Shown: positions 39,669 to 64,000, counted from the first letter of the stretch. The stretch: DNA of 64,000 nucleotides from an uncultured Candidatus Saccharibacteria bacterium (GCA_964596615.1 CAZQUN010000001.1:66786-130785); one strand, 5' to 3'. The notes: generated from the letters alone by a model not told the origin. Numbers and translations: made by a program.

Positions 39669-39698
39669 ATCAAGCTTCTATTACGAAAGCAAGGCAAC

Positions 39699-39714: not shown

Positions 39715-39745
39715 TGTCTCCATTGTCCCCGTAATATCCTTATTT

Positions 39746-40851: not shown

Positions 40852-40855
40852 TAAA

Positions 40856-40886
40856 AGACCCCCGAAAAACGGGGGCCTTTTGTCCA
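40856..40886 (-). terminator. Rho-independent terminator of the 1207-aa gene
   Basis: CCCCCG-aaaaa-CGGGGG hairpin; the minus strand reads GGCCCCCGTTTTTCGGGGGTCTTTT. Confidence 0.7.
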
Positions 40887-40907
40887 ATTCTGTAATAAAC
40901 CTACTCG

Positions 40908-48629: not shown

Positions 48630-48644
48630 AAATAAACCCTTTCC

Positions 48645-48682
48645 GGCCAGCTCTATAAATGTATAGATCTGGCCATTTTTTA
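48645..48682. terminator. Rho-independent terminator (bidirectional)
   Basis: GGCCAGcTCTATAaatgTATAGAtCTGGCC hairpin followed by TTTTTT. Confidence 0.75.
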
Positions 48683-48701
48683 TTATGGCTCGTATTTGAC
48701 A

Positions 48702-49319: not shown

Positions 49320-49320
49320 T

Positions 49321-49692
49321 TCAACTACCCCTGATTAATTCTATTAATTTATCTATTTCTTCCTTGGTCGGTTTTTTATTCCGAACAGTCCTAAAAAAAG
49401 CGGGTAGGTACTCAACCGCATTTTTTTGAGATAAGATATCCCGAGGAATAATGCCTTGAGCCACTTTAGCCTGATCTATAAGCTCCCCGGTTTTATTCTG
49501 GGAGAGTCCTAAAGTTTTTGCCCATTTTCGCAAGATTCTTTCATCAGACGGAGGAGAAATAATTCCTCTTTCTATTTTACTCCAATTACTTGGATCATAA
49601 TCTATTAACCGACACATCTTTCTTAGGGTTAGTCCTCTTTGAATCCTCATCTCTTTTAAGTTTTTACCAAATTTTTTAAGGTTTTTGTACAT
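49321..49692 (-). CDS. XRE-family helix-turn-helix transcriptional regulator
   Basis: LKEMRIQRGLTLRKMCRLIDYDPSNWSKIERG matches the HTH_3 pattern. Confidence 0.75.
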   Translation of the reverse strand: MYKNLKKFGKNLKEMRIQRGLTLRKMCRLIDYDPSNWSKIERGIISPPSDERILRKWAKTLGLSQNKTGELIDQAKVAQGIIPRDILSQKNAVEYLPAFFRTVRNKKPTKEEIDKLIELIRGS

Positions 49693-49719
49693 AATATTAG
49701 AGATAATTATTTATTCTCC

Positions 49720-49962: not shown

Positions 49963-51453
49963 TTAAATCTGAACTATTTCGTCCATTTTCGTCTGTAAGA
50001 AATTGTTAATTATCTCGTCCCTATTTCTATCAAGAACAGCATTAAGCAAGACAATTATATCTTTGTCCGTCAAAACAAATACATAAACGCTCCTATTGAT
50101 AACAAAATCTCTACAAGTTTCCAAAGCTCTTTTTTTATTTTTGATACCCCTACACACAATATACCCGATGGTAGATTCGCGGTTATTAAATCTGCCATTC
50201 ATTTGGTCATACTCAGGGTTATTTATGTCGTGACTATAATTCTTACATTCAAACAATATCTTAGCGCAGAATAATCTGCCATAATTAGATAGCCGCGAGA
50301 AAAAACCCCTATCGCTTGAATTATGAAAAGTAATGTCTATTCTTTTTCTGCCTTGGTTTTGGGGGTCTTCCTTTTTAGGACCGCATAAGTAATTACTTGA
50401 ACTGGGGTCATTAAAAATCGTATTTAAACAATCTAGAATATGTTCGTGATAATCGTCAGCATCTTGATTTCCGGGTTTTATTTTTTGAAACATTTTTATT
50501 TTCTGAGTTATAGACTCTTGTATCTCATTTTTTCTTCTTTGCTTCTTTATAATATCTTCGTTTCCAACAGTATTTAAAGCAACCTTGCTCTTTTTGTTCT
50601 TATATTCTTTTAGTAAAGTTGGACGGTCCTTAATATAATCAAACACTAGTTCCCGTGACAGATTATACCGCCCATCTTTTTTAAGAGTCTTCTTGTATGG
50701 TTTAGCTATGCTTTTGTCTTTAAGAGTCCGACATAAAGCAGTTCTCAAATCATAATGTCTGGCTTGCTCAAACTCCAGTATTCCTTTGTTGTAAAAGTCA
50801 GCATAATTTATTGAGATATGTCTTCTTAATACCCTTTTAGGCACTAGCAACATCTTTTTACCTTCAACCACCAATAATCTTTCTTGGTTTTTCTGAAGAA
50901 AATCCCTTTTAGACTCATCCCAAAATATCTTGGTCTGAGTTTCTGCCATATCAATACCATATAAATCACATTGTTGTTGGGTATACTTAATTAAATCTAA
51001 TCTAATTATGTTCGTTACAATATCAGATACATTATCATTTCCGATATTCTCTATATGTAACGCGGTATCTTCAAGGTCGTTTAAATAACCAGACTTAACC
51101 GCCTTACTCTCTTTTAATTTACGGTAAATAGCTCTTGATTTTTTTCTGCCAATAGATTTTCCATCCTTTGTCTTGCGACCATAACCCAGTCCAGTTTCGC
51201 TAGGTTCGTGTAAATTATCTAATAAATCTAAAGCTTTATCCCTATTGCCCTTACGGATATAATTTATCAATCTTTCAAAAACAGATTGTATCTTTTGATA
51301 GCAATCCACAGAAAAATCATCATCTCCGCATCTTATAGCCCAAGGATCAATAAATAGAGGCGTATCCTTTTTGATAAAGCAATCAAAAAAATCCAAATCA
51401 TACTGGGTTTTTCCTAATTCAAAATATTCGGAAATAGTCTTTTTCATTTTCAT
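49963..51453 (-). CDS. Hypothetical protein with C-terminal PD-(D/E)xK nuclease-like motif (restriction-endonuclease-like; possible defense protein)
   Basis: RIDITF ... LFECKNY (D...ExK arrangement); the 350-aa N-terminal domain has no recognisable motif. Confidence 0.35.
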   Translation of the reverse strand: MKMKKTISEYFELGKTQYDLDFFDCFIKKDTPLFIDPWAIRCGDDDFSVDCYQKIQSVFERLINYIRKGNRDKALDLLDNLHEPSETGLGYGRKTKDGKSIGRKKSRAIYRKLKESKAVKSGYLNDLEDTALHIENIGNDNVSDIVTNIIRLDLIKYTQQQCDLYGIDMAETQTKIFWDESKRDFLQKNQERLLVVEGKKMLLVPKRVLRRHISINYADFYNKGILEFEQARHYDLRTALCRTLKDKSIAKPYKKTLKKDGRYNLSRELVFDYIKDRPTLLKEYKNKKSKVALNTVGNEDIIKKQRRKNEIQESITQKIKMFQKIKPGNQDADDYHEHILDCLNTIFNDPSSSNYLCGPKKEDPQNQGRKRIDITFHNSSDRGFFSRLSNYGRLFCAKILFECKNYSHDINNPEYDQMNGRFNNRESTIGYIVCRGIKNKKRALETCRDFVINRSVYVFVLTDKDIIVLLNAVLDRNRDEIINNFLQTKMDEIVQI

Positions 51454-51455: not shown

Positions 51456-51854
51456 TCAGGGCAACGTCTCACAAGCCGACCCGTCTTTGTCTCGGTCTAG
51501 CCCGTGAACATCGTTAGATATTCCACCACAATACTCGTAGACCCCTTGGGCTTGTCTGTGGGTAGAGAAATCATCGCAGTTGTAGGCATTGTAAGAACAA
51601 GTATATTTCGGGGTTGGCTCGGGTTCTTTCTTAAAAATCTCGTCAAGCGTAGGTTTGGATTCAACTGGCTCTTGTTCTTCTTCTTTTAATTGTTCTGAAT
51701 CGGTTGGCTGTTCTAAATCAGCTGGTTGTTCTAACCTAGTATTAACCGACTGGATAATGTTTGCTTCCTGATTGTTCTTTTCATCACTACCAGAAAAAGC
51801 GATGATTAGGATAATCACCATTACTCCTCCAGCGATGTAAAGATATTTTTTCAT
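51456..51854 (-). CDS. Secreted Excalibur calcium-binding domain protein
   Basis: Signal/TM; C-terminal CDDFSTHRQAQ...GLDRDKDGSACE matches the Excalibur DxDxDGxxCE motif. Confidence 0.65.
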   Translation of the reverse strand: MKKYLYIAGGVMVIILIIAFSGSDEKNNQEANIIQSVNTRLEQPADLEQPTDSEQLKEEEQEPVESKPTLDEIFKKEPEPTPKYTCSYNAYNCDDFSTHRQAQGVYEYCGGISNDVHGLDRDKDGSACETLP

Positions 51855-52835: not shown

Positions 52836-53084
52836 TCAAGAGAACCCGATCCCATATCCTAAAAACCCGGCTAGGGCTGATTTGGAGATTTGTTTGATGC
52901 TCTTGTTATACCAAACCAGAGAAATTCCGCCCAGAAGTCCCAGCACAATAATTGCCATAAAGTGAAAAGGATATTCCAAATCCGGCAACTCGCGATAAAG
53001 TATCCATCCCCAAAGCAAACCGCCCAAACCAAATCCAATAATATTGATTAATAAATATTTTTTAAAAGATATATTCTCAAACAT
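52836..53084 (-). CDS. Small 2-TM membrane protein (82 aa)
   Basis: Strong SD (GGAGG) upstream; Gly-zipper-like GFGLGGLLWG. Confidence 0.45.
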   Translation of the reverse strand: MFENISFKKYLLINIIGFGLGGLLWGWILYRELPDLEYPFHFMAIIVLGLLGGISLVWYNKSIKQISKSALAGFLGYGIGFS

Positions 53085-53192
53085 AAAAATTCCTCCTTGT
53101 TTCTATTTTACCCCAAAAGCCAAACCAAACAAACAAACTTATTAACAACTCAACTATCGACATTCAATATCAATATTTTTGAAGAATAACCC

Positions 53193-53381
53193 TTGACGTT
53201 TATAATGCCTCGTGGTAGTATAAAGAGGCAACCCGCCAAAATGATACCCCAATTGGGTATCGTCTCGCGAAGTAGTGGACATCCTAGACAGCCATTATAC
53301 TGTCGCCTCCGTGCCCTAAAGATGGGATATAGCGGAGAATGGACCCACACGAAGAACGAGTGAGGCGGGTTTCTTCGTTTC
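53193..53381 (+). ncRNA. Candidate small RNA unit 1 (promoter TTGACG-17-TAGTAT; ~155 nt; terminator hairpin CGAAGAAC.../GTTTCTTCG)
   Basis: Promoter and terminator seen directly; no credible ORF (only a 16-codon frame); GC-enriched. Confidence 0.3.
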
Positions 53382-53437
53382 CTAAATTGTAGTTATGGGG
53401 TTATAGGGATATGGATAAGAGATATGCCTAAAAACTC

Positions 53438-53631
53438 TTGACAAGTTTGTTTGTATATGATACGATATTAACAATATTAGCGGCCTGCCGAAAAAAGACG
53501 ACCCCCAGTGTCTTCGGAGTAGAGGCCAGTATTACAGGGGTGATTGGAAGGAATAAAACCGCTCCCCTTCCGAAAAATTGTACTTGAGGCGGAACCCCCC
53601 GGGCGAAATAACAGTAACTCGGGGGTTTTTT
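53438..53631 (+). ncRNA. Candidate small RNA unit 2 (promoter TTGACA-17-TACGAT; ~160 nt; strong terminator CCCCCGGG...CTCGGGGG + U6)
   Basis: No ATG anywhere in the transcript; internal hairpins (GGCCTGCC...GGCCAG; GGAAGG...CCTTCC); followed by a conserved 45-nt block shared with unit 1. Confidence 0.45.
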
Positions 53632-53729
53632 CGCTTCCCAAATTGTAGCTGTGGAGTTATAGGTATATGGATGACAATCATAGCGACCCCGAACAATTCT
53701 ATCCCAAAACCAATAATCCCCCTAAAAAC

Positions 53730-53738
53730 TTATCCACA
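53730..53738 (+). promoter_or_regulatory. DnaA-box-like 9-mer adjacent to a bidirectional terminator
   Basis: TTATCCACA on the plus strand; a GCCGC-tggg-GCGG hairpin + T6 follows at 53741..53767. Confidence 0.3.
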
Positions 53739-53783
53739 ATAAAAAAGCCGCTGGGGCGGTTTTTTACTTACGCCACCAGCGGG

Positions 53784-53948
53784 TTAAGAATTTTGTTCCC
53801 TACTTTGAATATAATCCCATTTTATCCTGTCCTCTCGTATTTCTCTTTCCACGGGATCATTGTCTTCAATTGTCCGAGAATCGGCCCCGCATTCTGGACA
53901 GGATTCTCCCCTGCTAATCCTCCGGTAACCACATATTGGACAATCCAT
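53784..53948 (-). CDS. 54-aa double-CxxC zinc-ribbon protein (MDCPICGYRRISRGESCPECGADSRT...). Not in ORF track
   Basis: Hand translation; SD AAGGAGGG 6 nt upstream; promoter TTGACA-16-TAATAT at 54014..53988; terminator at 53741..53767. Confidence 0.55.
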   Translation of the reverse strand: MDCPICGYRRISRGESCPECGADSRTIEDNDPVEREIREDRIKWDYIQSREQNS

Positions 53949-54011
53949 CTTATCCCTCCTTCTTTGTAAATTCGCTTTTTTTAAGAATATTATCAGAAAA
54001 CGTGCTTATGT

Positions 54012-54044
54012 CAAACCAAAAAGGACCCATCCGTAATGGGCCCC
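54012..54044 (-). terminator. Rho-independent terminator of the 54094..54723 gene
   Basis: The minus strand reads GGGCCCATTACGGATGGGTCC + TTTTT. Confidence 0.55.
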
Positions 54045-54093
54045 GCGGCTCAGAAGAAGAATTGCAACCTCCATTTGTGCCTCCTGTTGAGAT

Positions 54094-54733: not shown

Positions 54734-54769
54734 AAACTACCGGCATCGTTAGTTAATAACCGGTAGTTT
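54734..54769 (-). terminator. Hairpin AAACTACCGG/CCGGTAGTTT (10-bp perfect stem) overlapping the stop of the upstream gene, followed by promoter TTGACA-17-TATACC
   Basis: Seen directly. Confidence 0.4.
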
Positions 54770-55397
54770 ATTTCAATTCCTCCTCTCTTTCTTTTTTGGA
54801 TCTATAACAGTAAATATAGACCCAGATACTCAAAAAGGCAAAAATGAGTCCAGGAGCAAGCAAGTAAAACAGAACTTCAAATAAATTTTGCCTGACCTTT
54901 ATTTGCCAGAAATAGAGGTTAAGAATTTCGTACGATTGGACATAAAACCATAACCCAATACTTGTAAAATAAAAAGATGCTTTAAACTTGCCCGTCCAGT
55001 GGACTGAAACATTAATCTTTTTGCGACGGCTGAAAAGACTAATGTAGGATAGAAACGCCTCGCCGACCAGGATTAAGATAATTAGCAATCTAATCCTGTT
55101 GATACCCTGAATCCACAATTCTTTGAAAACAAAGGCGAACATAGTGACTCCAAAGAACTTGTCCCTGGCTTGGTCTAGAAATGCTCCAAACTTAGATTTG
55201 GCATTAAGGGCAAAAGCGGCAAACCCGTCAGCTAAATCAGTCAGCCAAACAAAGAGAACCAGGTAGAAAATATCGGAATTGCTGAACGAGTAGGGCCCGA
55301 ACCATAGAATAATGTTAAGGCCTATAGTCACCACTATTCCTATGCCGGTGATAAAATTAGGAACATCTTGAAGAGTGATTCTTCTCATTTCTTTCAC
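54768..55397 (-). CDS. CDP-alcohol phosphatidyltransferase family protein
   Basis: DLADGFAAF...GAFLDQARDK matches D-x2-DG-x2-A-x8-G-x3-D-x3-D; 5-6 TM. Confidence 0.55.
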   Translation of the reverse strand: MKEMRRITLQDVPNFITGIGIVVTIGLNIILWFGPYSFSNSDIFYLVLFVWLTDLADGFAAFALNAKSKFGAFLDQARDKFFGVTMFAFVFKELWIQGINRIRLLIILILVGEAFLSYISLFSRRKKINVSVHWTGKFKASFYFTSIGLWFYVQSYEILNLYFWQIKVRQNLFEVLFYLLAPGLIFAFLSIWVYIYCYRSKKEREEELK

Positions 55398-55439
55398 CTC
55401 CTCCTGTGATAAATTTTCAAAAGAACCTAATATACATAA

Positions 55440-55457
55440 AGGGCCAAAATCGGCCCT
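55440..55457 (-). terminator. Hairpin AGGGCC-aaaatc-GGCCCT downstream of the protease gene
   Basis: Seen directly; weak U-tract. Confidence 0.4.
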
Positions 55458-55485
55458 CCGGTTAAACTAATGACTTGCGAAATTA

Positions 55486-56232
55486 TTAATTGATAATGAT
55501 GAATTCTTTGATTATGCCGGACGGAATTGTTTTAGTCAATCCTCTTGAGCTAACCAGGTTAAGACCAATAACTTCTCCTTTAATATTAATTAAAGGACTG
55601 CCGTTAGCCAAAGTATCTTCTTCAATTAAATTAAGTTTCAGAGTTGAATCGCTGATGCTTCTAATAGTTCCCAAACTGATAAATCTGTTTAATTCATTTT
55701 TTTCCAGTTTGATTCCGGCTAAGACAACTCTTTGTCCAAGACGAAGGTCTCCTGGTTCAACCAATGAAACAACCGGCAAATTATCCTGGTCTATCTTAAG
55801 AAGAACCAGATTATTCTCTAAATCTCTTTTAATCACCTGGGCAGAAAGATAATCTCCGTTTTTAATAATCCAGTAATTATTTGTCCTTGAAGAAATTAAA
55901 TCAGCGGCGGTAATAATTAAGCCGTCGCTTGTGATAATAAAGCCGGTCCCCTGATTAATCAGAGTCTTATTCTGATAAGATTGAACCGCAACTAGACGAG
56001 GACTAATCCTTTCAATTGCCTCTTCCAAAGCGGTATTTTCAGTAATAATAATTTCCTCAGTCGGATTGATAATGGTCGTCCCATTGCCAGCATGACGGAA
56101 AAATTCAATCTTTGAAAAAGGCGGAATAGTTGCTAAATAGGGCAGGAGGAGATTATCAGCCAAAACGCCTCCCAGGCCTCCAATAACCAGAATCAAAAAA
56201 ATGTTTATGGTCTTATCTTTTAATTTAGACAT
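55486..56232 (-). CDS. Membrane-anchored trypsin-like (S1/DegP-like) serine protease domain protein
   Basis: GTGFIITSDGLIITAAD; ANGSPLINIKGEVIGLN resembles the GNSGGPL..G.VIGIN catalytic-Ser region. Confidence 0.45.
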   Translation of the reverse strand: MSKLKDKTINIFLILVIGGLGGVLADNLLLPYLATIPPFSKIEFFRHAGNGTTIINPTEEIIITENTALEEAIERISPRLVAVQSYQNKTLINQGTGFIITSDGLIITAADLISSRTNNYWIIKNGDYLSAQVIKRDLENNLVLLKIDQDNLPVVSLVEPGDLRLGQRVVLAGIKLEKNELNRFISLGTIRSISDSTLKLNLIEEDTLANGSPLINIKGEVIGLNLVSSRGLTKTIPSGIIKEFIIIN

Positions 56233-56272
56233 AGGGTTTGATTATGGCCGCTTAAATGATAAATGTCAATAT

Positions 56273-56623
56273 TTACCAGGTCACCTCGATTTTCCGGCTG
56301 GCTCCTTGGAATTGGCCAATAGATGTAATTGTATCCGACCCATTATAGGTCGTTGTATAGATGGCATCAGCGCTGAAATCAAGAGCAACATCGGTATAGG
56401 GGCAACTACCAGCTCCGTTTTGCCTGACTTCGTAAAGGCATTTTTCCGCCCCGGCATCGGCAGTATAAAAAGCAATAACTGACTTTCCTGCCTGGCGGGA
56501 GGCCTCAATTTGCTGGATTGCTAAAGCGCCGACTCCGAATCCAATGGCCGTAATTGCGCTTAGAATTAAAAGAGTCAGAATGATTGCTACAGCTCCTTGT
56601 TGATTGATATTTTTTGTTCTCAT
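56273..56623 (-). CDS. PilX-like minor pilin / pilus assembly protein
   Basis: N-terminal QQGAVAIILTLLILSAIT matches the PilX_N pattern. Confidence 0.45.
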   Translation of the reverse strand: MRTKNINQQGAVAIILTLLILSAITAIGFGVGALAIQQIEASRQAGKSVIAFYTADAGAEKCLYEVRQNGAGSCPYTDVALDFSADAIYTTTYNGSDTITSIGQFQGASRKIEVTW

Positions 56624-57120
56624 TAATATATTCTCGGAGCGATAGTGTTTTGGAGATTAATTACCGTTGCTTCTTCGGGCCTGTTGCCGCTTGTTTCGAT
56701 CTTCATAACAATGGTAACTACTTTTCTGGCCGGAGCAGACGGGAAGGTGTAAGCCTGAACATAGAAACTACCCGTTATCTCAACATTACTCGGACTGGTG
56801 ACCTGGCCGTTTCTCAAAAGTTTTTTATTAGTATTATCAAATTGGTAATCAAAGGTCTGGCTATCGGCATTGGTAATATTAAGCGTTGTCAAACCACTGC
56901 CAGCGCCAGTATTAATTGCGCTTGTTCTTAATTCTTTAAACATCGTTTCCGAAAGAAAACGACCGGCTTCCTGGGCATTTTGAATAGCAAATGCCTTTCG
57001 CTGGCCCTTGATAACGGTAGAAGCGATATTACCAACAGTAATGATGATTATACCAAAAGCAGCCATTGCGACAAGCAATTCAACAAGAGTAAATCCTTTG
57101 TTTTTTACTTCCAGTTCCAT
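56623..57120 (-). CDS. Type IV pilin/pseudopilin (prepilin N-terminal cleavage/methylation motif); start trimmed to MELEVKNKGFTL
   Basis: KGFTLVELLVAMAAFGIII matches G/FTLxE. Confidence 0.65.
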   Translation of the reverse strand: MELEVKNKGFTLVELLVAMAAFGIIIITVGNIASTVIKGQRKAFAIQNAQEAGRFLSETMFKELRTSAINTGAGSGLTTLNITNADSQTFDYQFDNTNKKLLRNGQVTSPSNVEITGSFYVQAYTFPSAPARKVVTIVMKIETSGNRPEEATVINLQNTIAPRIY

Positions 57121-57608
57121 AATCTGTTTTCTGTATTTAGATATTGCCAGTCCCCTGTTGGCAAAAGCCATTTAATTTCAATAACAACCTTGACTTCGTT
57201 AGTAGAAACACTTGTTAAACTGACTTTGCGATAAAAGGGGCTGTCATCGCCAGTATCATACTGATAAAGACCACTATTGCTGTCGTACTTGAGAGGAGTC
57301 TCAGAAGAAGATAAGAGCGAAGCGCTGTCATATTGAATCCGGTAATCGCCGGTAGTAACCGAGCTGTACCAATCATCCCATTCAGTTTCTGCTTTTCTCA
57401 TATCCCTGATAACTTCTATCCCTTCCTGGGCTAGACCAGAGGCAATTAGTTTCATCTTGGCAGTACTGGCTCCTTCAAAAGAAGAACTGACTAAACTCAT
57501 AATCCCAACCAAGGCAACCGAGGTAATAAAGACAGCGGTTATTACTCCGATTAAACTAAATCCTTTCTGGTTTTTTCTTTTTTTAGGCATAAAACTATTT
57601 AACTTCAA
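57105..57608 (-). CDS. Minor pilin-like protein (degenerate prepilin N-terminus)
   Basis: KGFSLIGVITAVFITSVAL. Confidence 0.5.
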   Translation of the reverse strand: MKLNSFMPKKRKNQKGFSLIGVITAVFITSVALVGIMSLVSSSFEGASTAKMKLIASGLAQEGIEVIRDMRKAETEWDDWYSSVTTGDYRIQYDSASLLSSSETPLKYDSNSGLYQYDTGDDSPFYRKVSLTSVSTNEVKVVIEIKWLLPTGDWQYLNTENRLWNWK

Positions 57609-58122
57609 TTAAGCCGGCTGTACTAATAACCACCGACTTGGTTAAAGAAGCATCAATAATTTCCAATGTAATGGTTGCTCTCTTGCCAGCTAAGCTTTCT
57701 CCGTCAATATATGTGGTTGGATTGGGCGATTCAAAAAAAACATCAACTTCATTTGATAAAGGAGCGATTTCATTAACTCTAATATTATCGGACAAATTAA
57801 TTGTTTCGATAGTTGTATCGCCTCCCTGATAAGATGAGTCGCCGTTTACATCTCCGTAAATAATATACGAAGTGGCATTATCGGCAACATAGAGACCATA
57901 GCCGTAGTAGTTTCCGGTAATATCAACTCCGCTTAGAGCTTTGTTCTGAGCCTCCCTCAAGTCAGAGGCCAGTTTCTGGGTATCTTGGGAAAGAGTATAA
58001 TTTTTCTGACCAGACCGATAACCAACTAAAACAATTGTCGAAAGCAAACTCAAAATGAACATGACAACAAGAAGCTCAAGCAGGGTTGCTCCGGATTCTT
58101 TTTTCTTTTTATTTCCAAACAT
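57595..58122 (-). CDS. Type IV pilin/pseudopilin (GspH/PilE-like)
   Basis: SGATLLELLVVMFILSLLSTIV prepilin motif. Confidence 0.65.
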   Translation of the reverse strand: MFGNKKKKESGATLLELLVVMFILSLLSTIVLVGYRSGQKNYTLSQDTQKLASDLREAQNKALSGVDITGNYYGYGLYVADNATSYIIYGDVNGDSSYQGGDTTIETINLSDNIRVNEIAPLSNEVDVFFESPNPTTYIDGESLAGKRATITLEIIDASLTKSVVISTAGLIEVK

Positions 58123-58149
58123 CCCTTATATTATACCACACTACTCTAA

Positions 58150-58178
58150 CTTAAAAAACCGCCATCAATTAACGGTTA
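58150..58178 (-). terminator. Hairpin AACCG...CGGTT + U-run downstream of the FN3/PKD gene
   Basis: Seen directly. Confidence 0.4.
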
Positions 58179-58198
58179 AAAAATACTAAAAAATATTT

Positions 58199-59281
58199 TT
58201 AGTGGGGAGTAACTTCTTTCCATTCAGGTAATGGAATCTGAACACCAACAGTCTGTGGGTCGCTTACATTATCGCAACTCAGACCGTCTGAGTCGGTTAC
58301 ATCCAAAGTGACTTCTTTTTCTCCATTAGAAGTAAATTGAACTGTTGGATTTTGGTCGCTGGAACTGGATGGGTCACCATCTTCAAATGTCCAGGACCAA
58401 CTTGATTTAGAAGCCCCACCGTAAACCGTTGATTGATCAGTAAACAAGACATCTTCATCCTGGCTTGGATTCTCCGGCGACCAGGAAAAATCAATTGTCG
58501 GATATTGATGAAGTCCGGTTGTAAATGACGAGCCACTCACCCAGCCGGAATCATCCCCTTCTTCATCGTAGACCTTAACCCGCCAGTAATAGGTGTTATT
58601 GTAGCCAATCTGGTCGGAGCCGGGTGATTCCGCCACGGTTACTGTCTGATTATTAGTTGTCGGGCTTGGATTGGAAAGATCCTCATAATCTCTGTCAACT
58701 TCTGGTGAACCAAAGTCACTATTATCATCCACCTGGAACTCAAATCTCTCCTGGTCATCATCGTCACCGTCAGAATAAGTCCAGGAGAAATAGTGAGAAG
58801 GAGTAGAACAATAATCTCCGCTTGTAACCGAAAGATCGGTCGCAGTCGGGTCGCTTGAACAACTATCACTAACCACAAAAGAACTATCATCTTCGACCCA
58901 TTCACTAATACTGCCGTATTCATCTTCAACCCTTACCCGCCAGTAATAGGTTGCGCCAAAAGACAGGCCTTCTTGATCAACTTCATAGTTTTCATTGCTT
59001 GAATCGACCCAGCCGGTATCTATCTCCGGATCATCAAAATTATCGTCATCGTCAATTTCAACTTCATAATCAGTATGACTAGAAGAACCATCTACAGTCC
59101 ATTCAACCTTTGGGGTTGGATAAGCGCTTGAATAACAAGATGGCTGGTCGACATTGTCGGTACAAAGAGTAAAATCAGTCCCTTCCTCATAAGCCCAGAC
59201 ATAATAGGCGAAATAAAAGCTGCCCGCTATAACAATCAAAAGCAGCATTAAAAACGAATATCTTTCGATAAAACTTCTCAT
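58199..59281 (-). CDS. Secreted highly acidic protein with two FN3-like repeats (YYWRVRV/YYWRVKV) and a C-terminal PKD-like domain
   Basis: N-terminal TM/signal; Asp/Ser-rich; WSWTFEDGD...EVTLDVTDSDG PKD signature. Confidence 0.55.
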   Translation of the reverse strand: MRSFIERYSFLMLLLIVIAGSFYFAYYVWAYEEGTDFTLCTDNVDQPSCYSSAYPTPKVEWTVDGSSSHTDYEVEIDDDDNFDDPEIDTGWVDSSNENYEVDQEGLSFGATYYWRVRVEDEYGSISEWVEDDSSFVVSDSCSSDPTATDLSVTSGDYCSTPSHYFSWTYSDGDDDDQERFEFQVDDNSDFGSPEVDRDYEDLSNPSPTTNNQTVTVAESPGSDQIGYNNTYYWRVKVYDEEGDDSGWVSGSSFTTGLHQYPTIDFSWSPENPSQDEDVLFTDQSTVYGGASKSSWSWTFEDGDPSSSSDQNPTVQFTSNGEKEVTLDVTDSDGLSCDNVSDPQTVGVQIPLPEWKEVTPH

Positions 59282-59325
59282 TTCCTTTCTATTGTATTAC
59301 TTTTTTAAGCAATTAGCCAAAAAAC

Positions 59326-59334
59326 TTATCCACA
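59326..59334 (+). promoter_or_regulatory. DnaA-box-like 9-mer, 5 nt upstream of the -35 of the FN3/PKD gene promoter (TTGGCT-18-TACAAT)
   Basis: TTATCCACA on the plus strand, 3 nt after the stop of the peptidase gene. Confidence 0.35.
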
Positions 59335-59337
59335 ACC

Positions 59338-60546
59338 TTAATTAGCATTAAGAACCAAATGGAATAATGAACTCTTTAAGATTAGAGTAATAATTACTCC
59401 AATAAACATCCATAAAACAAAAGGAAAGGGTTTGCAGATTTTGATTTTTTCATCCTTCTTTTCCAAAAGCCATTTTTTAACTGATTCGGCCTGGCTTCGA
59501 GTTAATCCCTCTGGATAAATCTGGCTAAGATGTTCTTTGAAAAACTTTTTGTCATTTTTAATTTGATTAATAACGCTCTCGTCCAGATTCATTTTAGGTT
59601 TTAGATTCCTGGTCTCTATTTCTCTTGTTCCGGTTCTTGAAATATGAAAATCAATTAATGAGGTAAATATGGTAAAAACTATCATAAAGATAATCATTAT
59701 CTGAACAGTTTTTTTAAGAGATTGCCAGGTAGCGGTCGGGGAAGTAATAAATCCGTAAATCAGAACAATAATTAGGATAGAAGTAATTACTTTAAGAACA
59801 ATTGGTTTTTTCAGAAAATCAGAAGCAATTCTTCTGAAGATAACAAAGGCAGCGAAAACAAACATTTGAAAAGAAGCAATATCAACTGAAAAATATTTCT
59901 TAATTGGTTCTTGGAAAACAGTAAAAATTAAAACTATGGTTACAAAGGCAAGAAGAATTGTTCCCATGCTTTTAATCTTGTCTTTAATTGCTTTTTTAAC
60001 ATCTGGCTTTTTCTTTTTTTCCCGGCTGATTTCTTTCTTAGATATTTTCAAGTAAATAAATTTAAGAAAATAGAAAAAGGCTTTGATGAGTAAATAGATA
60101 AAAATTGGAATAAAAATATTAACCAAGAGAGAAAAAGAAGGAAAAAGAGGCAGATATGATTTCCAATAATATCCCAAAGGGATAAGAAGGGCATAGACAA
60201 AAAAGAGTTTGGCATCACCAGCAGCCCAAGCCCCGCCCCGCCACATTAAAAAGGCGATTATCAGAGCGATAACGGCATTAAGAAAAACTCTTGATAAATA
60301 GACTAAAGAAACAGTAAGGACCGGGGTTGGCGAATTGGCCGGCTGGTCCAATATTTCAAAATGGAAAAAGTGGGTTACCGGCGAGGCAACAAAATACCAA
60401 ATCAAAAAGAACAGAATAATCCCTAATCCCCAGAAAAGACCGAGAAGAATCCATTTGTTTCTGACCTTGCCATATCTAATATCTTCGTAGGTAGTTATCA
60501 GGCCAAGAAATATGACAAAAGGCAGGAATAGAATATTAAATATCAT
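59338..60546 (-). CDS. A24-family prepilin peptidase-like membrane protein with long C-terminal extension
   Basis: YEDIRYGKVRN (first Asp motif) and AAGDAKLF (GGGDxKL-type second Asp motif); 8-10 TM. Confidence 0.55.
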   Translation of the reverse strand: MIFNILFLPFVIFLGLITTYEDIRYGKVRNKWILLGLFWGLGIILFFLIWYFVASPVTHFFHFEILDQPANSPTPVLTVSLVYLSRVFLNAVIALIIAFLMWRGGAWAAGDAKLFFVYALLIPLGYYWKSYLPLFPSFSLLVNIFIPIFIYLLIKAFFYFLKFIYLKISKKEISREKKKKPDVKKAIKDKIKSMGTILLAFVTIVLIFTVFQEPIKKYFSVDIASFQMFVFAAFVIFRRIASDFLKKPIVLKVITSILIIVLIYGFITSPTATWQSLKKTVQIMIIFMIVFTIFTSLIDFHISRTGTREIETRNLKPKMNLDESVINQIKNDKKFFKEHLSQIYPEGLTRSQAESVKKWLLEKKDEKIKICKPFPFVLWMFIGVIITLILKSSLFHLVLNAN

Positions 60547-61463
60547 TTCTCTTTAATCCCAATAATGGGATGGTAAAAATCTTTTGTTTCCTGGATAATT
60601 AAATCTTTTTTAATTGGCTTGAACTCTTTACTTTTATCAGGATAATCCCGATGAATACCAAGACAATATTTCTTGTATTGGCATTTTTTGCAGGTTGAAA
60701 TAAACATGATTTCCTTTTCCGGCAGGGTTCGCCAGACAAAGGGCCAGAACTTAGGTTCAAGAGTACAAAGAGGAAAATGATAGAGTCGAAGTTCTTTTAA
60801 GTCAGAAAAGAATGGCTCAATTTTATTTAAATAGGGCCTAATTTTTGAATAGGAAATCATAACCTTATCTAGATTCTTCTCTGCCTGGCCTTCTGTCTCA
60901 AGGTAAATAACAATGACCCTATCTGTGGAAGGAAATTTAGAATTGATAAGATTGAGTGTTTGATCAATGTATTTGGCTGAAAGTTTACTTAGAACTGTTC
61001 TAATTTCTATTGTCTGGTTTTCCTTCAGATCTAAAATATTTTCTAATCCTTTAACCATTTGGGTAAAGCTATTTTTTGTCTGAGTAATACTATCGTGAAC
61101 TTTTTCATTTGGACCACATAAAGAAACAGCAATATTTAAATTATCAGCGCTCATAATCTCTTTAGCAAAGTCCCGGTAACAAAAACGCCGGCCGTTGGTT
61201 AAAAGTCTTAATTCATGCTTAGGAAAATTTTTCCTGACAAATCGAAAGATATCCAGAAAATGAGGATGAAGAGTTGGTTCGCCGCCGGTTAAAATAACCG
61301 GCTCATTGGGACCAATCTTTTTCTTAATCTGTTTAATCCTTGAAATTAGAAGATTGTAATCATAGCCTTTGCCAACATGACCACCCTCAGATTCCCAGGG
61401 CAAATCCGGATTGGTGCACATCAGACACTTATTATTACATTTATCCCAAACGCATATATCCAT
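60543..61463 (-). CDS. Small radical SAM enzyme with C-terminal CxxCxxxxxC auxiliary motif (twitch-like)
   Basis: CNNKCLMC; ILTGGEPTL; CKKCQYKKYC. Confidence 0.65.
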   Translation of the reverse strand: MDICVWDKCNNKCLMCTNPDLPWESEGGHVGKGYDYNLLISRIKQIKKKIGPNEPVILTGGEPTLHPHFLDIFRFVRKNFPKHELRLLTNGRRFCYRDFAKEIMSADNLNIAVSLCGPNEKVHDSITQTKNSFTQMVKGLENILDLKENQTIEIRTVLSKLSAKYIDQTLNLINSKFPSTDRVIVIYLETEGQAEKNLDKVMISYSKIRPYLNKIEPFFSDLKELRLYHFPLCTLEPKFWPFVWRTLPEKEIMFISTCKKCQYKKYCLGIHRDYPDKSKEFKPIKKDLIIQETKDFYHPIIGIKEK

Positions 61464-61465
61464 AA

Positions 61466-62383
61466 TTAGACTGGTTTTAATTCCTTATCGCCGTAATGCT
61501 TTAAATACTCCTTCCAAATTCCTTCGCATTGGTTGAATAATTTGCATTGACGGCATTTTTTTGGTTTTATCCGGCCGACTATTTTCCTTGAATTTTCAAC
61601 ATCAAGATTCTTAAAATCAGGAGCGATGTGTTCCGTTTTGAAAGTAGCAACTTCTTGAAGTTCGCTGACCTGATTGAGATAGTCCTGGAAATAACAAAGG
61701 GGGACATAGCGAATATGCCAGTGGGGGATTTTATTTTTTTTTCCGATATCAAGGCATTTTTTAATAGCGGGAGCGGCTTTTGAGATTTGAGGAACTAATT
61801 TATTGAAATTATCATGGGCGGCGCCGTAGCTCGGATCAACAAAGATGAATTCTGAGTTCCTAATGCCCTGATTAAAAATGAATTTTCCAATCTCGGGCAA
61901 ATATTTAAGATTATCCTTGATAATAGTTGTATTAGAGCCGATCTTTTCGAAATTGAGTTTTTTTAAATTGTTTAATCCTTTTTTTAACTGATTAAAACTT
62001 CCTTTTGACTGAGTCAGGTAATCATGGGTTTTGGCATTATGGCCGTGAATAGAAAAAATAATATCTGTTAGGCCGGCCTTAATGATTTTTTGAGCGTATT
62101 TGGGATAAGAAAACATCCGGCCATTAGTTGCCATATTAATCGTTTCAAAGCCTAAATCCTTGGCAAACTTTATCAGTTCAACCGCGTCTTCTCTGATGGT
62201 TGTTTCTCCGCCGATTAATTCGAGATAGGTCGTTCCTCTTTTTCTGGCTCGAATCATTTCCTGTTTAATTTCATTGGTTGTTTTATTGGGTAATTCCCTT
62301 TTATTGGAATCAATACAAAAACGGCAATGATTATTGCACTCATAGCCGATAATAAGCACTGTTTTTTTTATTTTATCCGTCAT
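61466..62383 (-). CDS. Small radical SAM enzyme, paralogue of the preceding gene
   Basis: CNNHCRFC; LIGGETT; CRQCKLFNQC; blocks shared with the 60543..61463 product (TNGR.F.Y; HD..TQ.K.SF.Q..KGL.N). Confidence 0.7.
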   Translation of the reverse strand: MTDKIKKTVLIIGYECNNHCRFCIDSNKRELPNKTTNEIKQEMIRARKRGTTYLELIGGETTIREDAVELIKFAKDLGFETINMATNGRMFSYPKYAQKIIKAGLTDIIFSIHGHNAKTHDYLTQSKGSFNQLKKGLNNLKKLNFEKIGSNTTIIKDNLKYLPEIGKFIFNQGIRNSEFIFVDPSYGAAHDNFNKLVPQISKAAPAIKKCLDIGKKNKIPHWHIRYVPLCYFQDYLNQVSELQEVATFKTEHIAPDFKNLDVENSRKIVGRIKPKKCRQCKLFNQCEGIWKEYLKHYGDKELKPV

Positions 62384-62388
62384 TAAAA

Positions 62389-63381
62389 TTACCTATTCGG
62401 TTTAACTAAAACCGGGATATATTGGTTTTCTTTTTTAACTTTAGTAATTCTTTTCTTGTCTTTGTATATTTCAAAATATTGAGGGGTCATAACCAATCTG
62501 TTACCTTTTTTAATTCCTTTATAGATATTCTCTATATTGTTTAAAAAGTTTTCATCATTTTCCTGATAAAAAACACCTGATTCTATCTTAGATTCAGATT
62601 TATGGTATTTAATCTCTGAATTCTTAAAGTTTCCTTTAAAATTTCCGTAGAGAAGTATTTTATCAACGCAGGTCCAATACAAGGAGGCTGGCTCTTTTAA
62701 ACTCTCTTCTGTGATTTTAACCCTTTCCGGATCCATAACTTTTAATATCTCCAAAATATCATTGACGAACTTGATTGAAGGCCTACATTCTAAATGGCAG
62801 GGGTAATAAGAAAGGAGTGAATATGAAAAAACATTTAGTTGCCAGGCGAAATTCTTTGATCTTTTTAAAGATTCAACTGCTGGATTGGAAAATCCAAAAT
62901 TATTTGGATCACGTTTCTTATCTCCCTTGCTGTTAAGACATAAATAATCCCCGAAATCAAGACAGCATTTGGGATAGCCCATAACTTCTCCGAATTTTCT
63001 GCTGTCACGACTGTCTAAAGTTTTTTTGTAATAAAGATCTACCCCCTCCAGAGCCTTGCTTATATCCTTGGATACGCCTAAAGATATCTTTCCTTTTCTC
63101 TTATCATCCATATCAACCATCTCAAAGATTCCTCTTGGGCTGTTGACAATGAACTTACAATTAGAAACTCCTAATTTAAAGCCTAGTTTTTTACACAACT
63201 GATTAACCCGATTAAGTTTGTTAATAAAGGGCTGGTCATATTTGTCAAAATTAATTAGTTCTCCCATTGTCGGCTTTAGATCATACAAAAGAGCAATCAG
63301 TTCTATGTCAGATAACTGGGCCAAATTGGATATCTCCTGTATTATTCCGTACTCCTTTTTAACTTTTTTTTGGTTAACCAT
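62389..63381 (-). CDS. Hypothetical protein (Cys-containing, 330 aa)
   Basis: ORF only; conserved-looking YPKCCLDFGDYLC / YYPCHLECRP motifs. Confidence 0.3.
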   Translation of the reverse strand: MVNQKKVKKEYGIIQEISNLAQLSDIELIALLYDLKPTMGELINFDKYDQPFINKLNRVNQLCKKLGFKLGVSNCKFIVNSPRGIFEMVDMDDKRKGKISLGVSKDISKALEGVDLYYKKTLDSRDSRKFGEVMGYPKCCLDFGDYLCLNSKGDKKRDPNNFGFSNPAVESLKRSKNFAWQLNVFSYSLLSYYPCHLECRPSIKFVNDILEILKVMDPERVKITEESLKEPASLYWTCVDKILLYGNFKGNFKNSEIKYHKSESKIESGVFYQENDENFLNNIENIYKGIKKGNRLVMTPQYFEIYKDKKRITKVKKENQYIPVLVKPNR

Positions 63382-63385
63382 TTAA

Positions 63386-64000
63386 TTAGATATCTGTTAT
63401 CTGCCGAACCGTTAAAGCAATTATGTCTTTGCTTTTCTCGTTTAGAATAATGGAAACACTATCTCCTATTTTTAAATCCGAATACTTATTTTTTTTCTGA
63501 GAGATTATTTTATTGGGAGGAGATATCTCCATAACAACAAATTTCGTTTTACTGGTAAGCAAAACCTTCTCAATCCCTATTTCTGTCTTTATTAAAATAG
63601 AGGTCTTGTTCCTTTTGGCAACAGCGCCGTCTAAGATATTGCCCGAAACAGCGCTTTTTTGTTTTTTCTCTACTTTTTCTTTGTTTGTTTTTTTCATTTT
63701 TTTCTTATAAGAAGCAATTTTAGCATTAGCCCCTTCTAAAAAGAAGAGTAAATGCAAAAAAGGTTCATTTGATTTATTATCTTTAAAGTGAATTTCGTCT
63801 CCAAAACTTGGCTCAATCATTCCAAGATTTTTAAGCTGGGATATGTTTTCTTTAAATTTTTTTAAAAAACTTAAACCAAAGTTACTTCTAAAATCCCTTC
63901 TTGAAATATATCCGTCAATAATCATTTTCTTGCTTATATAGTATAACATCTGCGATATCTTATTATTAGGCGTTCCTTCGTAAAAAACCTTGAACCCACC
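63386..64000 (-). CDS. Hypothetical protein, probably extends beyond window end
   Basis: The frame stays open upstream of the annotated Met to position 64000. Confidence 0.3.
   Translation of the reverse strand, partial: GGFKVFYEGTPNNKISQMLYYISKKMIIDGYISRRDFRSNFGLSFLKKFKENISQLKNLGMIEPSFGDEIHFKDNKSNEPFLHLLFFLEGANAKIASYKKKMKKTNKEKVEKKQKSAVSGNILDGAVAKRNKTSILIKTEIGIEKVLLTSKTKFVVMEISPPNKIISQKKNKYSDLKIGDSVSIILNEKSKDIIALTVRQITDI

Follow-up and report, generated by a model that had tools for sequence, protein, structure and literature searches.

RESULTS

A minus-strand gene series at the window edge

The window, the whole 64,000-nucleotide stretch of DNA that was analyzed, ends in a series of genes that its ORF calls place close together and all on the minus strand. 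The genes listed in a preliminary description of this DNA, a Candidatus Portnoybacteria (CPR) contig, are all present on that strand, and the radical SAM (rSAM), protease, Ig/PKD, and pilin genes are co-directional and densely packed. Related loci used for comparison are cited by number (L001 and so on).

At the edge lies a partial gene (63386..64000, minus strand) whose frame is open through base 64000. Its product joins a HemN_C-like segment to a small C-terminal domain. L040 and L078 encode large proteins that match the rSAM queries, and residues 7 to 114 resemble their C-terminal region; residues 112 to 202 resemble proteins of 96 to 111 aa whose genes immediately precede the DUF483-like gene in L089, L011, and L012. 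These resemblances suggest that the gene is most likely the end of another rSAM protein of the same cassette. Because this frame is open at the last base and L089, an 83%-identical relative, has four further rSAMs upstream, the cassette extends beyond the window. The next gene (62389..63381, minus strand), which is conserved as part of the cassette, encodes a 330-aa DUF483-like protein in which four Cys are invariant (GYPxCC ... PCxxxC). The preliminary description had placed a Cys-motif protein after the rSAM genes; the protein exists, but its gene lies outside the region as then delimited and is transcribed before the rSAM genes. At the opposite end, that region began at 54768 with a gene that went unmentioned, encoding a CDP-alcohol phosphatidyltransferase (54768..55397, minus strand; CDP-OH_P_transf, 58.8 bits). 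This gene is an unrelated neighbor with a terminator-like site (55438-55459) ahead of it.

HxsC-like radical SAM enzymes and a FlaK-like protease

The two tandem rSAM paralogs of ~305 aa with C-terminal CxxCxxxxxC motifs that were originally reported are rSAM-A (61466..62383, minus strand; 305 aa) and rSAM-B (60543..61463, minus strand; 306 aa). Both match Pfam Radical_SAM (76 and 64 bits, respectively) and carry CxxxCxxC. Each also has four conserved C-terminal Cys that include the CxxCxxxxxC motif, and the Cys are kept across 34 orthologs of rSAM-A (C16/C20/C23 and C230/C277/C280/C286) and 39 of rSAM-B (C9/C13/C16 and C233/C258/C261/C267). Judging from the sequences, the four-Cys set is a putative auxiliary Fe-S cluster motif; Pfam SPASM matched neither enzyme, and the NCBIfam N_Twi_rSAM model scored only 34.6 against a cut-off of 170. 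Since rSAM-A and rSAM-B are only 25% identical, they are old paralogs.

The enzymes were compared with the NCBIfam models of the His-Xaa-Ser (HXS) system (TIGR03976-03979) and with the unpublished "type 4" models HxsA4 (NF038313), HxsC4 (NF038332), and HxsD_rel (NF038315). The best NCBIfam match of rSAM-A was HxsC4 at 154 bits, below the cut-off of 500, followed by HxsC at 98.8 bits (cut-off, 267.9). rSAM-B matched HxsC (TIGR03977) at 175.9 bits over model positions 30 to 288 of 292, likewise below 267.9. The HxsC/HxsC4 peptide-maturase type was the best match, not the housekeeping enzymes QueE, MoaA, or PflA that had initially been considered, and these are excluded. Orthologs of rSAM-A occur in CPR and Omnitrophota loci (E values of 1e-115 to 1e-176).

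The gene that follows (59338..60546, minus strand) overlaps that of rSAM-B by 4 nt. By its motifs and predicted fold, its 402-aa product is a FlaK-type (A24B-like) GxGD aspartyl membrane protease. FlaK, PibD, and TadV are class III signal peptidases and GxGD proteases of peptidase family A24 (FlaK structure, 3S0X). Like them, the window protease has two Asp in transmembrane (TM) helices, the second in xGD[AV]K, and lacks the N-terminal methyltransferase/Zn-finger domain. The motifs behind the earlier A24-like call, EDIRYGKVRN (residues 21 to 30) and AAGDAKL (residues 108 to 114), are present, and D22 and G110-D111-A112-K113 are invariant across 21 diverse homologs; the call holds, with a sub-threshold Pfam score (Peptidase_A24 [PF01478], 16.7 bits, under the gathering score of 26.5). 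Some homologs have a precomputed PF01478 match, and a profile search of PDB sequences found nothing. The predicted fold is FlaK-like and polytopic. Unlike FlaK, PibD, and TadV, the protease is very remote in sequence, with Ala, Ser, Thr, or Gly as the first residue of GxGD across the family (W[AST][AP]GDAKLF). It also differs from them in having a conserved C-terminal extension, in which additional TM helices are followed by a small alpha/beta domain and a final TM helix; reported as 250 aa long, this extension is real and kept family-wide, but it measures about 230 aa. No second GxGD protein was found among window ORFs of at least 120 aa.

Surface protein and pilin genes

An acidic, N-terminally anchored protein of 360 aa (58199..59281, minus strand; pI 4.05) is encoded next. 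Pfam assigns it two Ig_Rha78A_N (FN3-like) stretches and a PKD domain, and its composition (Asp, 13%; Ser, 14%) agrees with the Asp/Ser-rich FN3-FN3-PKD protein first described. Behind the anchor stands a motif, C[TS]xxxx[QE]PxCY, that is not invariant. A smaller Ig homolog lies between the rSAM-B and protease genes in L001, L003, L017, L018, and L027. The Ig/PKD protein probably groups with the protease/rSAM module, not with the pilins. The 76-nt gap between its gene and the first pilin gene contains a terminator-like hairpin with a T-run (58157..58177, minus strand), which is weak evidence of a transcript boundary because such sites are no more numerous in total than expected from shuffling.

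Beyond the gap lie four small genes, all on the minus strand, whose products have leaders of ~10 aa ending in Gly (marked below by a slash). Three of them exceed the N_methyl cut-off (PF07963, 21.2 bits): prepilin 1, a GspH/FimU-like minor pilin (57595..58122; 28.3 bits); prepilin 2, a PilV-like minor pilin (57105..57590; 24.6 bits); and prepilin 3, a PilW/ComGF-like minor pilin (56623..57120; 30.7 bits). Prepilin 1 (MFGNKKKKESG/ATLLELL) has weak matches to GspH, ComGD, and other NCBIfam models. Prepilin 2 (MPKKRKNQKG/FSLIG) lacks Glu at +5 and matches PilV (TIGR02523) weakly; its start is that of the public gene call on an identical contig (mechanical ORF start, 57608). The start of prepilin 3 (MELEVKNKG/FTLVELL) is likewise a gene call (mechanical ORF start, 57171). 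The fourth product, a PilX-like small protein (56273..56623), had no family match in Pfam and NCBIfam scans; it was assigned from its N-terminus (MRTKNINQQG/AVAIILTLLIL) and from the fixed slot that it (family 13) occupies behind the three pilins in seven related loci. The four prepilin N-termini noted at the outset thus correspond to three family-supported pilins and one N-terminus. No HxS-like target or repeat motif was found in the pilins, and Cys number zero in the three pilins and two in the PilX-like protein.

The last gene of the set encodes a membrane-anchored serine protease (55486..56232, minus strand; Trypsin_2, 61.9 bits) that has no PDZ domain, so that "DegP-like" was a misnomer. 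It lies 3' of the pilins in L005, L006, L008, L012, L013, and L089 and travels with them. Pfam scans of the large ORFs from ~700 to 48,100 matched no pilus family (PilB, PilC, PilD, or PilM to PilO), and ORF scans of the window outside 48,300 to 49,700 found no major pilin, ATPase, or platform protein.

Genomic partners in related loci

Using the protease as the anchor, we compared 80 loci at the species level. rSAMs of the window family were present in 70 of them (median, 4 per locus), and in 51 of 71 evaluable loci a same-strand rSAM of this family, mostly the rSAM-B ortholog, was encoded directly upstream of the protease. HxsB was found in 20/80 loci, HxsD in 20/80, and an HxsA4-type leader in 16/80; bona fide HxsB, HxsD, or HxsA4 genes occurred in 23/80, and an rSAM or Hxs gene occurred in 76/80. 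Pilin genes lay 3' of the protease gene in only 8/80 loci, members of the nearest clade, and also in the more distant L046. These counts do not bear out the single "type IV pilus-like module" that had been proposed.

Instead, Omnitrophota and a close CPR relative have His-Xaa-Ser precursors adjoining their rSAM-A and rSAM-B orthologs. In the Omnitrophota loci L030, L032, and L075, the gene order is HxsA4, rSAM-A ortholog (1e-125 to 1e-131), rSAM-B ortholog (1e-77 to 1e-83), and protease, and the L032 precursor scores 95.5 bits as HxsA4 (cut-off, 55). In L007, whose protease is 60% identical to that of the window (rSAM-A, 1e-164; DUF483-like protein, 1e-145), the downstream genes are HxsD, HxsD-rel, HxsB, and HxsA4. 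The HxsB proteins of L007 and L025 score 523 and 514 bits (cut-off, 370), and proteins of relatives reach 69 bits for HxsD (cut-off, 50) and 62 bits for HxsD_rel (cut-off, 41). HxsA4 of the relatives begins with a conserved leader (PKIKKDIKxFLxSEEGKISKK), which a K-x-G junction connects to a hydrophobic helix; (SHG)n repeats come next, and the protein ends in GQW. In HxsA4 leaders, [KR]-x-[GAS] stands immediately ahead of the hydrophobic stretch. Both these leaders and the four adjacent prepilins offer candidate class III cleavage sites. The precursors also have ordinary AxA signal peptidase I sites after the hydrophobic stretch, and a dedicated protease is therefore not strictly required.

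A six-frame scan of the 64-kb window for the precursor ORF whose presence nearby had been envisaged found no HxS/SHx repeat and no HxsA4-type leader. HMMs built from relatives found no HxsD among window ORFs, and no NCBIfam match to HxsB was obtained among the window proteins scanned (five other window rSAMs were checked with Pfam only). In L089, no HxsA, HxsB, HxsD, or HxS repeat occurred within 10 kb on either side of the protease gene. The link between protease and HXS is not reciprocal: when the HxsA4 leader served as the anchor, only 5 of 79 metagenome loci had the protease, which after dereplication accompanied 3 to 4 of about 22 precursor types. L099 and L100 carry rSAM-A/B orthologs without the protease.

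DISCUSSION

Our analyses make it likely that positions 58199-64000 hold the last genes of a large, multi-rSAM maturation cassette of the His-Xaa-Ser "type 4" kind that continues upstream past the window. To its 3' end we assign the partial rSAM, the Cys-motif protein related to DUF483, rSAM-A, rSAM-B, the GxGD protease, and probably the Ig/PKD protein. A separate RiPP-like system running beyond the window had been one of two possibilities raised previously, and it is supported by the comparative loci, which link the rSAMs and the protease to HXS genes, and by the open frame at the edge.

HXS (HxsABCD) is an anti-phage system of Pseudomonadota (PMC13128918). The proteobacterial HxsA requires rSAM-dependent modification and N-terminal cleavage, for which the paper names no protease (PMC13128918). 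The cassette resembles HXS in that rSAM-B aligns over nearly the full HxsC model, rSAM-A matches HxsC4/HxsC, and orthologs in relatives accompany HxsB, HxsD, HxsD-rel, and HxsA4 proteins that pass curated cut-offs. A secreted or anchored His-rich repeat protein that is matured by rSAMs and N-terminally cleaved would be the shared trait. In contrast to HXS, no HxsA, HxsB, or HxsD was found among the window proteins scanned, the window rSAMs score below the cut-offs, and the cassette has four to nine rSAM paralogs rather than two. It also adds the DUF483-like protein and the GxGD protease to the four published genes, and its hosts are CPR, Omnitrophota, Myxococcota, and DPANN, whereas published HXS is 99.7% pseudomonadotal. 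PADLOC detected nothing specific for phage defense.

The cassette also recalls SPASM-twitch RiPP maturases with a dedicated leader peptidase, given that its rSAMs have a putative auxiliary-cluster Cys motif and a protease is encoded in the cluster; as in RiPP systems, relatives have a conserved precursor leader and a small HxsD-type partner. To our knowledge, however, RiPP leader peptidases do not usually belong to the intramembrane-type GxGD aspartyl class, and the cassette's products would be repeat proteins targeted to the membrane instead of small peptides that diffuse. The pilin genes resemble a type IV minor-pilin operon (FimU/GspH-PilV-PilW-PilX plus tip adhesin) in being four consecutive genes for small proteins with class III leaders, in the same order of resemblance, with an adhesin-like Ig/PKD protein adjoining. 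Unlike in such an operon, a major pilin, ATPase, platform protein, and PilD were not found among the window ORFs scanned, and the Ig/PKD protein goes with the protease/rSAM module in other genomes.

The tight packing of the genes in one direction, the Gly-ending leaders on all four pilin-like proteins, and the recurrence of the arrangement in the eight nearest-clade loci and L046 could mean that the rSAMs modify the pilins or the FN3/PKD adhesin to give a modified pilus tip, with the A24 enzyme as the module's prepilin peptidase. We regard this earlier proposal as improbable, since more than 40 loci have orthologs of rSAM-A, rSAM-B, and the protease without any pilin, and in Omnitrophota and one close CPR relative the rSAM orthologs lie beside His-Xaa-Ser precursors. 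Moreover, L007, nested within the pilin clade of the protease tree, has HXS genes where the window has pilins; the pilins lack an HxS repeat and almost lack Cys; and a terminator-like hairpin stands between the pilin genes and the others. A more plausible, though still doubtful, role for the pilins is that the protease processes both the substrate of the rSAM cassette and the four minor prepilins, such that the pilin operon settled beside it. HxsA4-type precursors and pilins share a basic, Gly-ending leader followed by a hydrophobic helix, and no PilD, PilB, or PilC was found in the ORFs scanned in the 64 kb. L046, which represents a second branch of the protease tree with adjoining pilins, hints at a real functional tie, but the tree was built by neighbor joining and is a rough guide, and the adjacency is seen in only 8 to 9 of 80 loci. 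With their small size and many pilin genes, CPR genomes make chance adjacency plausible. In addition, L018 retains a canonical PilD within a PilB/PilC cluster that lies 9 kb away from the protease gene, on which basis the protease is not a general prepilin peptidase.

In CPR loci that lack HxsA4, the matured effector might be the anchored Ig_Rha78A_N/FN3-like protein, as the rSAM target, the protease substrate, or both. In about 20 CPR loci, its gene lies directly beside the protease gene or between those of rSAM-B and the protease; the distribution of the protein and that of HxsA4 and HxsD almost complement each other; and a conserved Cys motif stands behind the anchor. We nevertheless consider this unlikely, as the motif varies (the first Cys is missing in L012, and L017, L018, and L021-L029 show differences), no Gly junction precedes the anchor, and many loci with rSAM-A, rSAM-B, and protease have no Ig protein. 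Finally, glycosyltransferases, PMT_2, methyltransferases, and carbamoyltransferase parts flank the array in L001, L003, and L089, and the rSAMs might make or tailor something other than a peptide, for example a glycan or lipid of the cell surface, with the A24-like protein as a non-protease membrane partner. That seems very improbable: peptide maturases are the best family matches of the rSAMs, 23 of the 80 loci have HXS precursor, HxsB, or HxsD genes, both catalytic Asp are invariant throughout the protease family, and in CPR genomes glycan genes often neighbor anything.

If the locus is a His-Xaa-Ser-type cassette, the HxsC-like, twitch-type rSAMs would act in the cytoplasm to modify a protein or peptide synthesized by the ribosome; in relatives, this substrate would be the HxsA4 precursor, with HxsB and HxsD assisting. 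In the manner of class III signal peptidases, the FlaK-like protease would then cut the modified substrate on the cytoplasmic side of the membrane, presumably at the Gly before the hydrophobic helix, and the final product would be located on the cell surface. What our analysis shows is gene content, family membership, the predicted fold, and linkage kept across genomes; the chemistry, cleavage site, and substrate are inferred. The four minor-pilin genes and the trypsin-like protease gene (55486-58122) would form a separate unit that neighbors the cassette only in a Portnoybacteria-like lineage, and the class III leaders of the pilins may make them extra substrates of the FlaK-like protease, whose genomic partner, unlike that of FlaK, PibD, and TadV, is an rSAM array rather than pilus or archaellum genes. 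The locus most likely belongs to a large, widely conserved protein-maturation cluster related to the HXS anti-phage system, and the pilins are its lineage-restricted neighbors.

Gene organization of the cassette and its surroundings

Every gene between positions 64000 and 54768 of this low-GC window (~0.35) lies on the minus strand, and neighboring genes overlap or are separated by 2 to 5 nt, save at three gaps of 56, 76, and 88 nt. The window proteins are identical to those of a contig of the Candidatus Portnoybacteria type (CPR/Patescibacteria). In the direction of reading, the series consists of an ORF that is open at the window edge (63386-64000+), a 330-amino-acid (aa) DUF483-like Cys protein (62389-63381), the radical SAM enzymes (rSAMs) rSAM-A (61466-62383) and rSAM-B (60543-61463), a 402-aa polytopic membrane protein referred to here as the protease (59338-60546), an acidic protein with two Ig_Rha78A_N domains and a PKD domain (58199-59281), three N_methyl prepilins (57595-58122, 57105-57590, and 56623-57120), a PilX-like protein (56273-56623), a membrane-anchored Trypsin_2 protease (55486-56232), and a CDP-alcohol phosphatidyltransferase (54768-55397). 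The preliminary description had read this region as a type IV pilus-like module with rSAMs, and its observation stands because every sequence motif that it named was found in the window. The four pilin-like proteins resemble, in gene order, GspH/FimU, PilV, PilW/ComGF, and PilX, and a Trypsin_2 protease follows the pilins in most related loci. The gap 5′ of the first pilin gene contains a terminator-like hairpin, and the trypsin gene is preceded by a good promoter-like site, but such sites are no more numerous than in shuffled sequence. Pfam searches of the large ORFs at ~700 to 48,100 found no pilus assembly genes.

Several other regions of the window merit description. A surface-glycan cluster spans 684-37544 and consists of ~30 genes, only one of which is on the plus strand; it encodes GT1, GT2, GT9, and PMT_2 proteins, methyltransferases, an asparagine-synthase-like protein, a deacetylase, a flippase, and a Wzy_C+TPR protein. 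It also encodes three B12-binding rSAMs (5640-7112, 19925-21349, and 29425-30885) and two SPASM rSAMs (11288-12379 and 17824-18825), none of which is related to the HxsC-like pair described below. The GC-richest part of the window (38325-44531; GC, 0.42 to 0.45) holds ORFs of 447, 287, and 1,207 aa with no Pfam match. An Excalibur-domain protein (51456-51854) adjoins a 496-aa protein (49963-51453) that had no Pfam match in our scan and is assigned to DUF8370 in the public gene table. Finally, ~900 nt at 53150-54090 have a GC content of 0.43 to 0.49, versus 0.30 to 0.40 in the surroundings, with no ORF of >100 aa and no Rfam match; this stretch may represent the remnant of a gene, an insertion, or a novel RNA. 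The 82-aa ORF beside it (52836-53084) is the N-terminal part of a ~205-aa membrane protein that is intact in the related loci L005 and L013.

rSAM-A and rSAM-B as relatives of HxsC

The two enzymes, which are 25% identical to each other, each carry a CxxxCxxC motif and four conserved C-terminal Cys residues; the latter are compatible with a putative twitch-like auxiliary cluster, which no model confirms. The best NCBIfam match of rSAM-B was HxsC, an rSAM of the His-Xaa-Ser (HXS) system (175.9 bits over nearly the full length; cutoff, 267.9), and the best matches of rSAM-A were HxsC4 (154 bits) and HxsC (99 bits). The housekeeping identities raised in the preliminary description (MoaA, QueE, and PflA) scored far below HxsC and HxsC4 and far below their own cutoffs, and the NrdG model likewise scored far lower. 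On these scores, rSAM-A and rSAM-B are HxsC relatives that fall outside the curated equivalogs, and neither is a housekeeping enzyme. PADLOC returned only generic viperin-like rSAM similarity. A precursor ORF concealed between the rSAM genes was ruled out, since the gaps are only 2 to 5 nt.

The cassette continues past the window, given that its edge ORF (63386-64000) is open and that segments of this ORF match, in related loci, a small protein as well as C-terminal regions of large proteins of the rSAM family. An 83%-identical relative, L089, served as a stand-in for the DNA beyond base 64000; farther upstream, it encodes three additional rSAMs (one being HemN-like), an rSAM fused to GT2, and proteins resembling TsaD and TsaC. 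The extended clusters of L089 (1648-3260) and of another relative, L001 (3104-4819), carry either genes of the TsaD/Kae1-like and TsaC/Sua5-like types or a fused carbamoyltransferase, a hint that carbamoylation or adenylation is coupled to the rSAM array.

Four Cys residues are invariant in the DUF483-like protein. Its structure was modeled confidently, yet no convincing structural relative was found, and a likeness to NleE was too weak for use; no NCBIfam model covers this protein, and no paper on it was found in the literature searched.

Three further types of protein were observed in the related arrays. Proteins of ~640 aa (L005:5397-7298, L007:4383-6302, and similar) combine two HxsC-like rSAM domains in a tandem fusion, the N terminus being HxsC-like and the C terminus HxsC4-like (258 bits to NF038332). 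A conserved ~70-aa protein (YIVxYxSQEHxEVLGYV...EAKxYxVxEAEIAE) without a family match is missing from the window and present in 12 CPR loci (L021, L022, L026, L029, L037, L039, L040, L042, L047, L050, L064, and L066; e.g., L042:8847-9047). In nearly all 12, it is encoded precisely between the orthologues of rSAM-A and rSAM-B, and it could be a substrate or partner protein. Another conserved protein, of ~69 aa (KKDDxFLxTxTxFN...DTFLFVNxFPY), is encoded in the upstream array, between the rSAMs of 450 and 298 aa, in L007 (3239-3481), L013 (3299-3505), and four other loci.

The protease as a distinct GxGD subfamily

The preliminary description had called the 402-aa protein an A24-type peptidase. 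Despite a subthreshold Pfam A24 score, this call was borne out when 21 homologues (identities as low as ~26%) were aligned: D22 and GDAKLF (110-115) are invariant, and residues of the C-terminal extension are conserved as well. The protease profile had no match among PDB sequences, and it was fold comparison that revealed the likeness to FlaK. When the profile was searched against 1.84 billion cluster representatives, 783 proteins were found at an E value of ≤1e-30 and only 2,390 at ≤1e-3, nearly all of them matching over their full length (330 to 430 aa). Since relaxing the threshold added so few matches and the alignments were full length, the family is compact and well apart from ordinary prepilin peptidases. 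The A24 designation is correct, albeit for a special subfamily. No description of it was found in the literature searched, and no NCBIfam model exists.

The protease family and HXS-type loci

Scanning one genome per GTDB species yielded 228 protease loci, the best 80 of which were analyzed. Their hosts include CPR lineages, Omnitrophota, Myxococcota/Oligoflexales, Woesearchaeota, and Aenigmatarchaeota, among others. Among these best 80 loci, an rSAM or Hxs gene was present in 76, and rSAMs homologous to rSAM-A/B were present in 70 (median, 4; up to 8 to 9 per locus); in 51 of the 71 evaluable loci, an rSAM gene lies immediately upstream of the protease gene on the same strand. The same 80 loci include 21 with the DUF483-like protein, 20 with HxsB, 20 with HxsD-type proteins, and 16 with a precursor bearing an HxsA4-type leader. 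This precursor is built of a leader (PKIKKDIKxFLxSEEGKISKK), a hydrophobic helix, (SHG)n repeats, and a GQW end, and NCBIfam identifies it as HxsA4 (95.5 bits; cutoff, 55). The relatives' HxsD (69 bits; cutoff, 50), HxsD_rel (62 bits; cutoff, 41), and HxsB (523 and 514 bits; cutoff, 370) were likewise recognized. One locus, L073, labeled as from an uncultured Methanosarcinales archaeon, encodes an HxsA4-type leader followed by a Cys-Gly core, CSCGGCGSCGCSSCGCGCGCGCGCGCH, with no SHG repeats (5482-5706); one leader type therefore serves differing cores.

Gene order ties the window enzymes to these systems. Three Omnitrophota loci (L030, L032, and L075) share the order HxsD, HxsD-rel, ..., HxsA4, rSAM-A orthologue, rSAM-B orthologue, protease, with E values against the window of 1e-125 to 1e-131 for rSAM-A and 1e-77 to 1e-83 for rSAM-B; the further rSAM paralogues of these loci match at 1e-37 or worse. 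A closer relative, L007, has a protease 60% identical to that of the window, rSAM-A (1e-164), the DUF483-like protein (1e-145), and the same upstream array, and its protease gene is followed by genes for a TPR protein, an Ig-like protein, HxsD, HxsD-rel, HxsB, and HxsA4. A neighbor-joining tree of the protease places L007 inside a clade whose remaining members bear pilins (the window, L089, L005, L006, L008, and L010 to L013), and HxsD and HxsA4 occur on the deeper branches (Omnitrophota, DPANN, and others). The protease family therefore has its ancestral setting in the HXS-type system, and the pilin neighborhood is derived, although it is also present in the more distant locus L046.

The link has limits. 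No HxS repeat, HxsA4 leader, HxsD, or HxsB was found in the window (its five other rSAMs being checked by Pfam only) or within 10 kb on each side of the protease gene in L089. In the reciprocal test, metagenome loci anchored on the HxsA4 leader encoded HxsB in 59 of 79 cases and HxsD in ~50 of 79 but the protease in only 5 of 79, with the array of some long loci (L165) extending past the 10 kb read. The protease accompanies 3 to 4 of ~22 dereplicated HxsA4 precursor types, and two loci with rSAM-A/B orthologues (L099 and L100) have no protease after them. The protease is thus an accessory rather than an obligatory HXS component. Where present, it would cut at the [KR]-x-[GAS] junction of the leader, judging from the leader's shape and the class to which the enzyme belongs. 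AxA sites are likewise present in HxsA4 precursors, beyond the hydrophobic stretch, so signal peptidase I could free the repeats.

Possible roles of the pilins and the Ig/PKD protein

The idea that the rSAMs modify pili, put forward in the preliminary description, is attractive but probably wrong: the HXS-type context is ancestral, and pilins follow the protease gene in only 8 of the best 80 loci. A narrower proposal is that the FlaK-like protease also cuts its four neighboring prepilins, each of which has a ~10-residue leader with Gly at its end; no second GxGD protein was found among window ORFs of ≥120 aa. In a related locus, L018, a canonical PilD (Zn-finger N-domain and GMGIGDIKL) is encoded within a PilB-PilC-pilin cluster that lies 9 kb away from the L018 copy of the protease; the protease is thus a specialized paralogue and not the general prepilin peptidase of the cell. 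We regard cleavage of the prepilins as conceivable but doubtful. Considerably more speculative is a combined scenario in which the protease family is the missing HXS-type N-terminal processing enzyme and, in the window's Portnoybacteria lineage, the entire HxsC-like rSAM array has been retargeted together with the protease from (SHG)n peptides to components of the pilus tip (the minor pilins and the FN3/PKD adhesin); we consider it improbable, but if true, it would mean that radical SAM enzymes modify the type IV pilus of an episymbiotic CPR bacterium.

The Ig/PKD protein is anchored at its N terminus and usually bears the motif C[TS]xxxx[QE]PxCY; because this motif is not fully conserved, its Cys pair was rejected as an obligatory modification site. 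In five relatives (L001, L003, L017, L018, and L027), a small Ig_Rha78A_N protein is encoded between rSAM-B and the protease gene, and in the nearest clade, it is encoded downstream of the protease gene. The Ig/PKD protein is therefore part of the rSAM/protease module rather than of the pilin set. Since the Ig protein and HxsA4 and HxsD have nearly complementary distributions, we retain as a rival, if an unlikely one, the possibility that it is the effector in the window lineage.

Comparison with the published HXS system

The published HXS system comprises four genes, encoding HxsD, HxsB, HxsC, and HxsA, and was established as an anti-phage barrier only in 2026 (Nat Commun 2026, PMC13128918). 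HxsA is modified (+8 Da on SHRSS), its N-terminal cleavage requires HxsB, HxsC, and HxsD, and the exported protein blocks entry of phage DNA (PMC13128918). These systems are 99.7% in Pseudomonadota, and the paper makes no mention of a protease or peptidase, archaea, or Patescibacteria (PMC13128918). In contrast, the loci described here represent a much larger relative in CPR, Omnitrophota, Myxococcota, and DPANN archaea that adds up to 8 to 9 HxsC-like rSAMs, the four-Cys DUF483-like protein, and a dedicated family of FlaK-type GxGD proteases with at least 783 sequence clusters. NCBIfam holds HxsA3, HxsA4, HxsC4, and HxsD_rel models, indicating that its curators are aware of further types; nothing relevant to HxsA4/HxsC4, rSAM RiPPs in Patescibacteria, or an rSAM with a prepilin peptidase in Omnitrophota was found in the literature searched.

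Taken together, the window holds a fragment of a widely distributed, undescribed elaboration of the HXS rSAM maturation system with its own GxGD protease; in the window lineage, this HXS-like fragment is juxtaposed with minor pilins and has no visible substrate. The association first noticed is therefore real and of more interest than a pilus operon, albeit for a reason other than the one proposed. For the window itself, the outcome corrects the reading of rSAM-modified pili, which is probably wrong. Beyond it, the compact clusters L007, L032, and L156 offer systems for testing the chemistry of HxS modification, and the protease family provides a concrete candidate for the N-terminal processing step of HXS-type systems.
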